From the NCBI GenBank assembly GCA_964016885.1, contig OZ024748.1, positions 60,078,001-60,142,000 of the forward strand: DNA of 64,000 nt, given 5' to 3'. Position 1 is the first letter of the stretch. Every line of letters starts with the position of its first letter. Shown piece after piece: positions 4,168 through 13,036 of this stretch. Source of the stretch: Eledone cirrhosa (taxonomy: Eukaryota). A program made the position numbers and the translations under genes. The notes under the pieces are model-generated. The model worked only from the letters and a program-made list of their open reading frames with translations, was not told where the DNA came from and did no database searches.

Positions 4168-4219
<52 letters not shown>

Positions 4220-4276
4220 ATATATATATTATATATATATTATATATATATGTATATATATATATATATATATATA

Positions 4277-4429
4277 ACGAAGGAAATGTGGTAAGGAACC
4301 AGGTGGACCATAACGCACCAAAGTACTCAATACTTGAGGTAGTAGAGTGGGTAATAGGAACCAGTAAGACCCCGACAGCTGAGCTCAAGCCGTTTCGACG
4401 GCTACAGCTGTCGGGGTCTTACTGGTTCC

Positions 4430-4432
<3 letters not shown>
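4277..4432 (-). mobile_element. Short repeat family B (PLE pLTR-like; 3' half of an HHR-like motif, fold-back end)
   Basis: aacgaaggaaatgtggtaaggaaccagg...gctcaagccgtttcgacggcta recurs at ~23232-23420, 30156-30322, 45953-46086, 48987-49183, 53600-53737, nearly always between (TA)n runs. Confidence 0.75.
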
Positions 4433-4467
<35 letters not shown>

Positions 4468-4569
4468 GTATATATATGTAATATATATATATATTATATA
4501 TATATGTATATATATGTAATATATATATATATATAATATATATATGTATATATATGTAATATATATATA

Positions 4570-5761: not shown

Positions 5762-5809
5762 AACATTTGAAAAGATGGCTTTTGCAGACTCATCGAAACC
5801 GGTCATTTT
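5762..5809 (+). ncRNA. Minimal type I hammerhead ribozyme motif, U3:A8 core
   Basis: aacat-TTGAAAA-gatg(gcttttgcagact)catc-GAA-accggt-C-atttt. Stem II gatg/catc, palindromic stem III ACCGGU, GUC triplet, stem I with one mismatch. Confidence 0.65.
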
Positions 5810-5986: not shown

Positions 5987-6372
5987 ATTATACATACACA
6001 TATATACTTACACACACACACGTATATACATACACACACATGTGTGTGTGAATGTATGTTGTGTGTGTGTGTATGTGTGCGTGTGTGTGTATAAGACAAA
6101 GACATGCAGCTCGACGGAATGGTACTCAACGTTATAGACTTTCCTTATTTCTTCGTCTCAGCAATATTTTTCGTTGTTTTCGTTTTGGTCAGATTCTTAA
6201 TTAGAACAGATACATATCTCATACTTGTACCTCTCGTATATGTATCCATCTACATATCTATCTATCTATATATCTATCTATGCATATTTATATAGTTATC
6301 CTTCAACCTATCTATCTATATTTATATATTTATCTTTCTATCTATCTATCTATCTTTCCATCTATCTATCTA

Positions 6373-8031
6373 AAGCGGTGTCGGCCTACGCCGATGACGT
6401 GACAGTAATGGTGTCGACGGCCTCCGAAATCGAGGCGGTCGGCACCTTACTGGAGGAGTACGAAAGGTTCACAGGGGCTAAGCTGAACCGGGACAAGTCG
6501 ATCGCTTTGCAACTCGGCACGTGGAGGGGCAGACCGATGCCCTCCGATGGCGTCGTCGGAAGCTGGACGGAGGGCCCGGTGAAGTTGCTCGGGGTCTGGT
6601 TCGGACCGGACCTCCAGGTGGAGAAAAACTGGGCGGAGGTTACGAACAGGGTGTTTGCACTGACCCAGAAGTGGGCCAGTTGCAAACTAACCCTGAAAGG
6701 TCGGGCGGAGGTGGCGAACACCTATATAGCGTCCGTCATCTACTACAGCCTGACCGTAGTGCGCTGCCCAAGGGAAACCCTCACCAAGATGGAGCGCGCG
6801 CTCTTCCAATTCCTTTGGAAGAGGCGGGCTCCTATGGTGAGGAGATCCATCTGCTGTCAACACCCTTCGAAAGGAGGGCTGGGGATGCCGTGGCTAATGA
6901 TGCGTAAACACGCATTAAGGCTACGGCACCTCTACGTATTCCTCACCGGTCAACCGGTGTGGGCCTCGTTTGTGAGACGAACCTTTCCCAGACTCGTCTC
7001 ACTCACCGAGCTGCAATCCTGGGTCAAGCAGAGACCGAGAAAACTGGGCGCCTGGCACACTCAGTGTGCCCAGGCGCTCACCGCCCTCTGGCAGGCGGAT
7101 CCGGTTATCATTGGAGACTCCACCGCAACATTCTATAGAGGGCTGGTACGCAGCAGGTGCGACGACGCCCTCGGAGAAGCCCTAGACATGAAGGAGGACG
7201 GACTGGCCAGCCTGTTCGGTAGGACATTCAGCCCAGGACCTATGGACAACTTCCAGAAGTCCCTGGCCTGGCAGTGCTACCGAGGGGCTCTACCCGTTCG
7301 AGAAAAGCTCTACAGACACGGGCGCCCGGGTAGGGACCCCGCCAAAAAGATCTGTCCCAGATGCGTGTGCGACGAGGAAACCGTTGCACACGCATTGGTA
7401 CACTGCTCGGGCGTAGCCGATCTGTGGGGCTATGTCGAACAACTGCTGTCAAGGGTGGGACCGATCCGGTTGACCACCGAGTCTATTGTAATGATCAAGC
7501 CGCCTCCCCCCTTCATAGATGAAGGAGAGGCGGTGTTTCTGTGCGTAATAGCCATGGTGAAAGAAGTTGTATGGTGGACGCGTCTGAAAGGACTGAGGTC
7601 AGGCACCTTTCTCTCTGGCCAACAACTGGTCCGTTTCTTCCGATATCATTTCGGAAGAAGGATCAGGATGGAGAGAGAGGTGCTCCACCCCAGTCGTTTT
7701 TATGAAAGGTGGGTGAAAGTGGCGAGAATGGCCCGTGTGAATGGGCCTTCTCTTTACATAAGCCTGTAGGTGGAAAAGAGGAAGGAACGAGGGAGCACGC
7801 CCTCTCTGTGCTCCTGAGGAAAAGGGTTGCACACTTTTTTCGTGGGTGTGTGCGACCCCCCAAGGCGCCTCCTCTCTATTGAGGATTTTGTTATAAATTT
7901 TATTTTTTGTTATATTTTATTTTATTTTTATACTTTGTTATTGCCTCCTCCTTATTGAGGGCGCCTTTTTGTGTAAACTCCCCCCTTTGTACTTGTCCCA
8001 CTTTTGATGCCCTGGTGGCAAATAAAAGAAA
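6373..8031 (+). mobile_element. 5'-truncated L1/Tx1-clade non-LTR retrotransposon (ORF2 C-terminal half plus 3' UTR)
   Basis: Open frame 6373-7769: AYADD, KLLGVWF, GGLGMP, CPRC...ETVAHALVHC zinc knuckle; AATAAA near 8021. GC-rich against flanks and bounded by (ATCT)n on both sides. Confidence 0.93.
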
Positions 8032-8035
8032 CATA

Positions 8036-8039
8036 TCTG

Positions 8040-8118
<79 letters not shown>
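8036..8118. repeat. (ATCT)n microsatellite between the two Tx1 copies
   Basis: Direct sequence. Confidence 0.98.
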
Positions 8119-9238
8119 GTGACCAGGGGCGTAGTCACACTAGTCAGGAAGGACGAGAATAAGGAGGATGGCATAGGCAACTTCCGGCCCATAACTCTGC
8201 TAAACACAGAGTTACAGATTTTGGCCAAGGGGTTTGCAAAGAGGCTGGCGCTTGTCGTCGAAAACCTGGTGGGAGAGGCGCAGAAATGCGCAATCCCGAC
8301 CAGGTTCATACACGAAAACCTCCACCTCATGCGATACATCATAGAGAGGGTAGGGTGTAAACCCGGCTTCGTTGGGGCCCTCATCAACTTGGATCAGTCT
8401 AAGGCTTACGATATTGACCATCGTTACCTAGATGCGGTGCTCGAGGCGGCAGGTTTCGGACCCGTGTTCAGGGGCTGGATTGCTGCAATGCACAACAGCA
8501 ACATCTGCTAAAGGGTCGAGGTGAACGGCTACATCTCGGAGCCGTTCCATATCACGCGATCCATCCGACAGGGATGACCTCTCTCCTCCCTTCTGTACGT
8601 ACTGACTCTCGAGCCATTACTGCGGAAGTTGGAGCTATTGCAGGGCAACCCTTTAGAACCGGGACTGCAGAAAGCGGCTTAACAGTAATGGTGTCAAGCA
8701 CCTCGCAAATCGAGGAAGTCGGCACCTTACTGAAGGCATACGAAAGGTTCACAGGAGCGAAGCTGAACCGGGACAAGTCTGTCGGTTTGCAACTAGGATC
8801 GTGGAGAGGCAAACCGATGCCTTCCGATGGCGTCGTCGGACGCTGGACGGAAGGACCGGTGAAGCTGCTCGGGGTCTAGTTCAGTCCGGACCTCCAGATG
8901 GAGAAGAAGTGGAACGAGGTGACGGCCAAGGTGTTTGCGCTCACCCAGAAGTGGGTAGAGTGCAAACTATCCTTGAAAGGTCGAGCGGAGGTGGCGAACA
9001 CTTTCATAGCGTCCGTCATCTACTACCGCTTGACCGTCGTGCCTTGTCCAGCCAAAACTCTCACCAAAAGGGAGCGCGCGCTCTTCCAATTTCTATGGAA
9101 GAAACTGGCTCCTTTGGTGAGAAGATCCATCTGCTGACAACACTCTTCACACGGAGGGATGGGGATGCCGTGGCTGACAATGCGCAAACACGCGCTCAGG
9201 CTGCGGCATTTCCACGTATTCCACACCGGACAACCGTG
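8119..9238 (+). pseudogene. Second, degenerate Tx1-clade ORF2 fragment
   Basis: RGVVTLVRK, NFRPITLLN, DQSKAYD, IRQG*PLS motifs, then a segment (8681-9237) paralogous to 6402-6959. Contains stops, frameshifts and a deletion over the YADD region. Confidence 0.9.
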
Positions 9239-9677: not shown

Positions 9678-9720
<43 letters not shown>

Positions 9721-9723
<3 letters not shown>

Positions 9724-11021
9724 TAAAATAACAGATTCAAGTTTAAACAAAGAATCGCTGCTTTCACCCTTAATGGGATCTTCTGAAACTAACAAAGTCA
9801 ATCTGTAAACGCAGAAGTGCATATTTCAAAAAACGTTGCAAACGGAGGAAGACAGGAAGACGATACTTTGGTTCGTGGAAACGTTCCCTTCAGAAAACAT
9901 ACAGGTAATATATACTTACCTACGCAAATAAGTAATGGTATAAACATAACATATACTTAGCTACCACATCAAGACGTAAAATATCCACGTATAGATCGTA
10001 CTATCCGTTAGGGTATAATGTGGGGCTGTAATACAGGAAGGTTTTGTGCAATTTATGTTTACAAGCCGAAATTGCCTCAGATTTTTTGTTTAAGATGCGT
10101 TCTGTGGCGTAGAGTATTTCCAGGACCTCAGCGGCGCAGAGGTCACATGGTCTTTTATTTCCGTTATACGATCTAGCCCTAGCTAAGATCTCCCAGTGTA
10201 ACTTATATTGGGTGTGGTTGTCTTTTAGACTCCAGATATAAGCTGAAAGTGACGTCATATTCCTTCTTAGAGAGTAACGAAAAGAATGGGTATGCATGTA
10301 AAGACGTTGCTTGAATCTATTGGCGGTTAACCCTATGTAGGCCCTACGGGACGTGGGTGTTTCAACCTTACATTTGTAGACAATGTTACTAGAGAGGCAT
10401 TTCCCGGAAAGGGGGCAATCAACCAGATTCCTACAATTACAGTTAGTACTAACTACAGGGTTGCACGTGTTCCTACGGCTAGGTAGTTTAGCTAAATTTG
10501 AAGCTGTGATGTTATGTGCAAGGTTAATAGACGTAGAGTAAGAAATTTTAATAGTATTTCTATTAAAAATTTTAGTATATTTATGTGTAGGGGGAGAATG
10601 CTTCGTAATAAGGGATAGAAAGATCTTAGCTAATGGTGTGGCCACCTCCATATTATATGGTGGGTTATACCATATAATGCGACGGGATCTATTTCTTCTA
10701 GGTCTATTCTCGTACTCTGTATATGCTACCTTATCGCAAATCCACTCCGAGCAAGAGCTTCATTGTAATAAGTGGAATGGTCGTTGAAAATATGCTCGTT
10801 AGTAGATAGACGGGAAAGCCTCAACGTAACGTTTCTTACCAGGTTCTTGGTTACGCTGGCAGGATGGTTGGAATGCTTACTTATGTAATTAAGCGTATCA
10901 TTCGGCTTTCTATACGAATAATACAACCCATTCGATAAATTGAGGGTAACGTCGAGGTAATTAACGACCGAGAGGTTTGCCTCAACCTGTATAGAGCGGT
11001 TGAAGCCTTTAAAGAAGGCTG
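9721..11021 (-). mobile_element. 5'-truncated Penelope-like element (RT C-terminus/thumb, Cys-rich linker, GIY-YIG endonuclease, 3' pLTR with HHR)
   Basis: VNYLDVTLNL..YRKPND..SNHP (10726-11021); frameshift near 10740; IIWYNPPYN..NCNC..CPLSGKCL..IVYKC..YIGLT..FKQRLYMH..CDLCAAE..LNKKSE (10001-10725). Confidence 0.93.
9740..9790 (-). ncRNA. HHR motif in Penelope pLTR (family G, CAGAAGA core)
   Basis: Minus strand agttt-CAGAAGA-tccc(attaa)gggt-GAA-agca(gcgattctt)tgtt-T-aaact. Confidence 0.7.
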
Positions 11022-11102
11022 TCTCTACGGTTCTCATATATTTGATATATATTTATCCTTATCGAGCACTCTTTGGATTTTAGTCTTCATATTTATTATT
11101 AT

Positions 11103-11143
<41 letters not shown>

Positions 11144-11462
11144 GTAATAATAATAAATTTGAAGACTAAAATCCAAAGAAGGCTCGATCAGGATAAATAT
11201 ATATCAAATATATAAGAACCGTTCATTGCCAGAGAACTTCTCCATGAACCACCTAATAGAATGTTAGTCTACGAGTTCATTTATACCATAAACGTGGTTT
11301 TGTCTTTGCGTGTAATTGTTTTCCTCGCACCAAATAATGACGTATTATCTTCGTTTTTTCCCGTTCTTTGCCAGGGAACGTTTCCACGAACCAAAGTATC
11401 GTCTTCCTGTCTTCCTTCAATTGCAACGTTTTTTTAAATATTTACTTCTGCGTTCACAGATT
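11022..11462. mobile_element. Rearranged and inverted pLTR pieces of the Penelope element
   Basis: 11373-11462 is the reverse complement of ~9802-9890. 11022-11105 and 11141-11222 are inverted copies of the pLTR tail also seen at 1122-1205, 21528-21615, 23027-23067, 36517-36595. Confidence 0.85.
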
Positions 11463-12244
11463 TTCCAACCATCATTGGTATTTCATCGCATTAAAAATCA
11501 GATACCTCAGGTTGGTGCGAGCAATAACTAAAAAAAGTTATTGGGACCAGTAAATCGCGTAAAGCGAGGGGGACAAGTAAACAACCGCTTTACGCGAATT
11601 ACTGGTCCCATTAACTCTTTTTAGTTATTGCTCGCACCAACCTGAATTATCTGATTTTTAATGCGATGAAATACCAATGATGGTTGGCAAATCACTGACG
11701 AAGGACTATTTTTATCATGTGTAACCCATGTGCAAATCACGCAGTATTCTTCTTTCTTCTCATGTTTTTTATATATATTTACCTCGGCTGCGTTTGTCTG
11801 TTTCTCTCTTACTGCTTCCCCGCTCTCTCTGTTTCTCTCACCTTCTTTCGCCCCCTCTGTCAGTTACACCTTCTCTCGACTGACCTCTTCCTCACACTTC
11901 CACTCACTCACTCTCTATTTCTCCCCTTCTCACTTCCTCCCGTTTGGCTTGTGTGGTTCTCTTCTTGCTTACATCTCACACACATCGACACGACGGTCTG
12001 TACCTCTCTCGCTCATGAAATCCACCCAGCTGATGCTGACCGGACAACCATGTTGCTTGTTTATTTTCCTATCTTCGGTTTGCTTTTATCCTTCTATGTT
12101 GTTTACTTGTCCCCCTCGCTTCACGCGAATTACTGGTCCCAATACCTTTTTTTAGTTAGTGCTCGCACCAACCTGAGGTATATGATTTTTAATGCGATGA
12201 AATACCAATGATGGTTAGAAAATCACTGACGAACGACTATTTTA

Positions 12245-12608: not shown

Positions 12609-12674
<66 letters not shown>

Positions 12675-12676
<2 letters not shown>

Positions 12677-13031
12677 TAAAGAAAAAGAGATGAAATCGAA
12701 AATGCAACTGGAGTCTTATTTTTTTTTTAAATATATATATTTATTTGGTTCCTTTACCGGTTTCGCAGTTCTTCTGCTTTTCAAAAGGTGAGTTGAGATG
12801 GAGGGTCTGTGGTTTTTCTCACATGATGTGAGAAAAACCACAGACACTCCATCTCAACTCACCTTTTGAAAAGCAGAAGAACTGCGAAACCGGTAAAGGA
12901 ACCAAATAAATATATATATTTTTTAAAAAAATAAGACTCCAGTTGCATTTTCGATTTCATCTCTTTTTCTTTATACTTTCACTCGTGTAGGACACCTCGG
13001 TTATTTTTCATTTTGTAAAAAAAAACCTCAC

Positions 13032-13036
<5 letters not shown>
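12675..13036. mobile_element. Family A: ~150-bp-arm palindrome carrying two HHR motifs
   Basis: Near-perfect inverted repeat 12675-12975 centred at 12825. Other copies at 41636-41815, 47527-47677, 59390-59520. Confidence 0.9.
12862..12899 (+). ncRNA. Minimal type I HHR, U3:A8 core (mirror copy 12751-12788 minus)
   Basis: cctt-TTGAAAA-gcag(aagaa)ctgc-GAA-accggt-A-aagg; all three stems pair; GUA triplet. Confidence 0.8.

Follow-up and report, generated by a model that had tools for sequence, protein, structure and literature searches.

A hammerhead motif with a U3-A8 core pair in a short dispersed repeat, likely of Penelope-like origin, in Eledone cirrhosa

By its sequence, the 38-base motif at 12862-12899 is a genuine copy of a small RNA motif of the hammerhead type, in which U3-A8 takes the place of the C3-G8 core pair. 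We regard it as highly probable that this is a minimal U3-A8 hammerhead that likely belongs to the terminal repeat (pLTR) of a Penelope-like element, that the swap was inherited from a single event, that the RNA would cleave weakly as a dimer, and that most of the short stubs carrying it are likely inert. The window, that is, the whole 64-kb stretch analyzed, has a GC content of 29%. The (TA)5+ microsatellite makes up 18% of it, retroelement fragments are scattered through it, and an assembly gap of 200 N lies at 20206-20405.

The motif consists, in order, of a stem I strand (CCTT), the core TTGAAAA, stem II (GCAG-AAGAA-CTGC), GAAA, CCGG, TA, and the second stem I strand (AAGG). The identical 38 nt were found at 12751-12788(-) and in the solo stub at 47604-47641(-). 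The marks of a minimal type I hammerhead, namely the core YUGANRA, GAAA, U16.1-H17, and a Watson-Crick 3-8 pair, were present at 12862, 12751, 47604, and 5762. All four share UUGAAAA and GAAA, with the triplet GUA in the first three and GUC at 5762. In the three intact copies of the repeat, here called family A (12862, 12751, and 47604), stem I has 4 bp, within the ~3-5 bp expected of such motifs. Stem II (GCAG/CTGC) has the expected G10.1-C11.1 closing pair and length of at least 4 bp, with a predicted pairing probability of 0.8-0.94 in family A, and the palindromic helix III is ACCGGU. The coordinates and UUGAAAA cores given in a preliminary description of this DNA (12862, 12751, 47604, 59430, and 5762) were all confirmed on the sequence. 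Its statement that stems, GAAA, and palindrome were kept holds for 12862, 12751, and 47604, and only in part for 5762, where stem I runs for two pairs and then meets a mismatch; in the 59430 copy, which it called degenerate, stem II and the palindrome are damaged. Rfam hammerhead models miss minimal variants. They gave no match to 12836-12915 (80 nt) at E up to 10, and hammerheads were absent among the 150 of 483 Rfam matches in the window that were listed, nearly all of which were microsatellite or hairpin artefacts. A candidate microRNA precursor at 12785-12865 was rejected, as it lay below the gathering score and is explained by the inversion described below.

Table 1. Hammerhead-related features in the window.
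Feature	Position	Strand	Remarks
Flagged motif (minimal type I hammerhead of family A)	12862-12899	+	Core 12866-12872; U3 12866, A8 12871; cleavage predicted 3′ of A17 (12895)
Right arm, long-form family A stub	12826-13034	+	~59-nt 3′ tail 12976-13034, ends in (TA)n
Left arm, inverted short-form family A stub	12672-12824	-	Tail-less
Hammerhead motif in left inverted arm	12751-12788	-	Identical to flagged motif
Solo short-form family A stub	47528-47677	-	Intact U3-A8 motif 47604-47641; (TA)n on both sides
Long-form family A stub	41637-41815	-	Motif 41743-41780 with U3G8; two of the four stem I pairs lost
Family A copy, older and decayed	59391-59517	+	Core TTGAAAA retained at 59428-59434; damage in stem II, palindrome, and cleavage triplet
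Sixth, distant family A relative	22607-22644	-	E 6e-6; overlooked by the preliminary description
Singleton hammerhead-like motif (5762)	5763-5808	+	U3-A8 core 5767-5773; stem II GATG/CATC; CCGG; GUC triplet
Family B copy	31375-31706	-	
Family B copy	55610-55950	-	
Family B copy	56018-56231	+	
Family B copy	26520-26765	+	
Family B copy	35745-35865	+	

Family A is a stub of 150-210 nt that begins ~40 nt upstream of the core in all copies, and the window holds six copies at 5 loci (Table 1). The motifs at 12751 and 12862 were considered as two events and this was rejected: they lie in the two arms of a single inverted insertion centered at 12825, with 4 differences over the first 150 nt, and therefore count as one event. 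The ~59-nt tail is found on the right arm only. (TA)n lies on both sides of this palindrome, of 47604, and of 59430, and on the 5′ side of 41743. A covariance model built from the six copies, which match it by construction, found no further copy in the window, where the next match had E 0.47. In public sequencing runs, stub 3′ ends near 12975 and near 13034 were both present, and both run into (TA)n. The 3′ part of the stub was matched there by 2,465 contigs (X1) and 1,932 raw reads (X19), counts that cover this part only, since the ribozyme part was skipped as repeat, and whose depth does not equal copy number. In two other organisms, it was matched by 7 and 30 contigs.

Position 3 is U in 6/6 family A copies, and position 8 is A in 5/6 and G in 1/6. 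The preliminary description had named a CUGANGA family consensus with random decay as the case against its own reading; C3 was found in none of the six copies in the window, and U3-A8 is the local state of the family and not decay from CUGANGA. Given this pattern, family A was counted as one inherited swap rather than several, and the swap likely arose once, in an ancestor from which we infer that all six copies took it. The one G8 copy, at 41743 (core TTGAAGA), had been called a possible intermediate or decay product. A tree of the six copies had no supported branch, so the reading of this copy was drawn from pairwise distances only. Its distance from the young copies is 4-6 of 74 sites, compared with 13-14 of 72 for the 59430 copy and 25-26 of 74 for the sixth copy (22607-22644). 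Both of these most distant copies retain U3 and A8, and G8 in 41743 is thus likely a later A-to-G change. It is accompanied by two broken stem I pairs, which leave 1 bp before the mismatch, short of ~3-5 bp. The intermediate was rejected on these grounds, and the sequence of 41743 likely reflects decay. U3G8 is not always decay, as a published alignment gives it for a Saccoglossus family (supplement of PMC4209133). The sixth copy has lost G5 and A13 and carries one both-sided change in stem I and one in stem II, the only such changes among ten pairs; this covariation, drawn from 6 related rows, was not significant (37/500 shuffles).

To gauge the role of chance, sites with T3/A8, a palindrome of 4 nt or longer, and a stem I of 2 bp or longer were counted in the window and in local dinucleotide shuffles (n = 400). 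This strict descriptor was matched by 4 window sites and by no site in the 400 shuffles, and the loosest descriptor had 8 sites against a shuffle mean of 1.2. The family A pattern had 0 matches in metagenome contigs. The general U3-A8 pattern matched there 100 times at 99 loci, with stem II in 19 and both stems in 0, and 72 times in viral contigs, with stem II in 3 and both stems in 1 (L055), which is probably a chance match.

The singleton at 5762 has the core TTGAAAA, GAAA, and TC after CCGG. The motif is non-random, its descriptor class having been seen in none of the 400 window shuffles, and it lies ~150 nt upstream of (TA)n, a position like that of a terminal repeat. It probably represents an old copy from a different family. 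The family A covariance model gave it only 12.7 bits (E 3.9), which excludes close kinship. The preliminary description had spoken of two unrelated families; unrelated can mean here only that 5762 has no clear similarity to family A outside the core, so that an independent origin of its swap is no more than putative. Of ten flank tests, one gave a hint of kinship (a local 3′ alignment, 8/1000 shuffles), and the other nine were not significant. The same hint would fit a possible, though doubtful, alternative, in which 5762 resembles the motif by chance or descends, distantly and after long decay, from the family A lineage, leaving no second family with a U3-A8 of its own. This alternative has to contend with the shuffles, the terminal-repeat-like position, and the low family A model score, and draws on the single copy in the window and on the poor fold: stem I has 2 bp before a mismatch, short of ~3-5 bp, stem II is present in the sequence with a predicted pairing probability of 0.00, and neither the monomer nor the dimer is predicted to fold as a hammerhead. 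In addition, prokaryotic DNA does contain the core together with stem II and GAAACCGGT but no stem I (19/100 matches).

Folding predictions for family A favored a dimer. Two molecules paired through the ACCGGU duplex reached -22.5 kcal/mol, compared with -15.0 kcal/mol for two monomers, and the dimer of the bare motif reached -20.3 kcal/mol. Helix III within one molecule was unfavorable (+0.7 vs -4.7), and the probability of stem I in monomers was 0.13-0.27. A dimer through a palindromic helix III is the accepted mode for such motifs (PMC4209133; PMC6765202). In the predicted folds, U3 also pairs with A17, which lengthens stem I and competes with U3-A8. A transcript of 12740-12910, running through both arms, was predicted to form a single hairpin (-149.5 kcal/mol) with both hammerhead stems at probability 0.00, so the flagged copy would likely be silent unless transcription starts near the center.

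From these elements we propose the following course. A high-copy Penelope-like element would carry the U3-A8 type I hammerhead in its pLTR and leave short stubs in (TA)n. The swap, once arisen in the family A ancestor and passed to every copy, would keep the tertiary 3-8 pair. With this pair in place, weak cleavage after A12895 is predicted for two copies on one transcript, paired via ACCGGU in a double-hammerhead fold, and a protein of the element might assist. Most stubs would likely be inert, and for the flagged one a transcript covering both arms is predicted to trap the motif in a hairpin with its antisense copy.

That positions 3 and 8 pair in active hammerheads, as the earlier reading had it, is established (PMC3088659), and rescue by a swap is reported for a Penelope-like hammerhead (PMC11167929). 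The further step, that the double change implies selection for activity, is reasonable and remains unproven in view of A/T pressure, of rescue by G3:C8 only, and of dispensable cleavage. Past selection on the hammerhead fold is likely. Unlikely, in our view, is a rival reading with the same Penelope-like origin that departs from ours in function alone. In it, the motif stems from a real hammerhead, drift under A/T pressure has fixed U3-A8 as a tolerated and almost inactive state, and the family spreads without cleavage, the sequence being retained as a hitchhiker or a protein-binding fold. The direction of the changes agrees with drift, as C3 to U3 and G8 to A8 are both transitions from G/C to A/T in a window of 29% GC. 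Picks of two G/C core positions give 3 and 8 in only 1/15 of cases, which is a modest bar, and the predicted U3-A17 pairing would act as a trap. The young family A copies, on the other hand, have all other core positions and the stems intact, and the distant relative at 22607-22644 has both-sided stem changes, not significant as noted. Published data fall on both sides. A deep mutational scan that covered all double mutants of a type III hammerhead showed rescue by the G3:C8 swap alone (PMC9901934), and insertion of the Penelope-like element Poseidon in vitro was not stopped by hammerhead catalytic mutants (PMC11167929). Conversely, activity in vitro is cited for U3-A8 (PMC3088659), and both changes are seen together again at 5762 and in two families of Schistosoma (supplement of PMC4209133).

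As to the carrier, family A is likely a high-copy stub from a Penelope-like terminal repeat, with (TA)n as its insertion site. Penelope-like elements have a linked telomerase-like RT and GIY-YIG reading frame; next to the family A copies in the window there is neither a reverse transcriptase or endonuclease frame nor any other coding sequence, and we infer the Penelope-like assignment from the form of the stub. Such elements are described as having an inverted copy at the 5′ junction, a tail at one end, and (TA)n as target (PMC8557442), and the first two of these traits were found in the arms 12672-12824 and 12826-13034. The tail is longer than described there (~59 nt vs 30-40 bp). The flanks of family A agree with the (TA)n target preference of the Neptune and Naiad clades, a weak sign because (TA)5+ makes up 18% of the window. 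The common start ~40 nt upstream of the core in all copies, none of which has coding sequence, would also suit another short non-autonomous repeat with the same hammerhead, such as a dispersed retrozyme monomer or a SINE-like element. We hold this to be improbable, given the 5′ inversion and one-sided tail and the absence from the window of tandem units, by which non-LTR retrozymes are recognized. The distinction from a retrozyme is in any case small if, as a 2026 preprint argues (10.64898/2026.07.22.740005), animal retrozymes themselves derive from Penelope-like elements.

Least probable, and hardly to be expected, is a model in which U3-A8 would be a convergent gate, acquired independently in family A and 5762, with U3-A17 holding the family A ribozyme shut until released by a dimer or a protein; if true, a very high-copy element would tune its own cutting.

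The window contains a second hammerhead family (B) with a canonical CTGACGA core and an ATGCAT palindrome, in which C3 occurs in 4/5 and G8 in 5/5 copies. In its 35801 copy, U3G8 goes together with three both-sided changes in stem II, and stem I is intact; this copy may therefore belong to a separate subfamily. A remnant at 9720-11052(-), without link to family A, has Atlas neighbors at 0.95-0.97, some clusters of which have GIY-YIG (23-26%) and HTH_animal (17-45%). We take it to resemble a Neptune-type Penelope-like element, the clade label coming from motifs. The endonuclease-like frame at 10004-10759 had no Pfam match and no related viral locus. The 3′ end of the remnant has a hammerhead-like stretch of non-canonical form, with CAGAAGA, a short stem, and GAAA but lacking UH, that is also present at 22324-22451(+). 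Two broken reverse transcriptase fragments of non-LTR retrotransposons lie at 6201-7769(+), with weak RVT_1 and zf-RVT matches, and at 8026-9236(+); they are ~84% identical over 555 nt. Fragments at 57163-57952(-), with a 112-nt inverted match (57088-57199/57867-57977), presumably resemble a mariner-type transposase. Other long inverted repeats, with arms 80-98% identical, were found at 18458-18851, 11459-11693, 11027-11222, 30594-31392, and 39115-39647, and are possibly further inverted retroelement insertions or MITEs. Another short dispersed repeat (~190 nt) with hairpin-forming ends lies inside (TA)n at 4183-4490, 30103-30410, 45860-46152, 48985-49235, and 53600-53790; the hammerhead descriptor had no match in it.

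The U3-A8 core had been presented as a surprise, which it is not: the variant is already in print, including for Penelope-like hammerheads. Natural U3-A8 covariation was published in several examples in 2011 (Perreault et al., PMC3088659), and Penelope-like hammerheads with U3-A8 followed in 2014, with ~1,300 matches in Schistosoma (Cervera & De la Pena, PMC4209133). The discovery value of the present family is small, as both variant and setting were known. Its contribution is a further animal genome with a canonical C3-G8 family (31534 and 55778) next to one with U3-A8, a convenient natural pair for the question of whether Penelope-like hammerheads must cleave. Searches limited to CUGANGA, and Rfam, overlook an abundant family.

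One system for comparison is the Poseidon element PAc, whose hammerhead was reportedly studied by Frangieh et al. in 2024. It resembles family A in having a minimal hammerhead in the terminal repeat and a genomic tail signature, and its dominant template is uncut RNA, which matches family A stubs that span the cut site; it differs in its C3-G8 core, its known full element, and its biochemical testing (PMC11167929). The animal non-LTR retrozymes of the 2026 preprint (10.64898/2026.07.22.740005) are, like family A, non-coding, Penelope-like-derived, and equipped with a type I hammerhead, but they are defined there by tandem units, whereas family A copies in the window are dispersed or inverted. 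The hammerheads of Perreault et al. show the same 3/8 covariation and, in the accessible part of that paper (PMC3088659), are not tied to Penelope-like elements or dimer-type motifs. The Cercyon hammerheads of Schistosoma mansoni (PMC4209133) share with family A the minimal type I form, U3-A8 for C3-G8, and a palindromic helix III. They also occur mostly as single, dispersed motifs, with opposite-strand pairs 100-700 bp apart. In the supplement, the Sm(4) core is given as UUGAAAAA and carries a mark for linkage to an element, and the Sm(3) core is given as UUGAUAAA; the Sm(4) core begins with UUGAAAA, as the family A core does. Unlike Cercyon, family A has no linked reading frame in the window and no extra base after A9; it has a 4-bp stem II and the 6-nt palindrome ACCGGU. 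In the lack of the extra base and in the form of stem II and palindrome, it is nearer to the hammerheads given for Marsupenaeus, mosquito, and Drosophila than to those of Cercyon.
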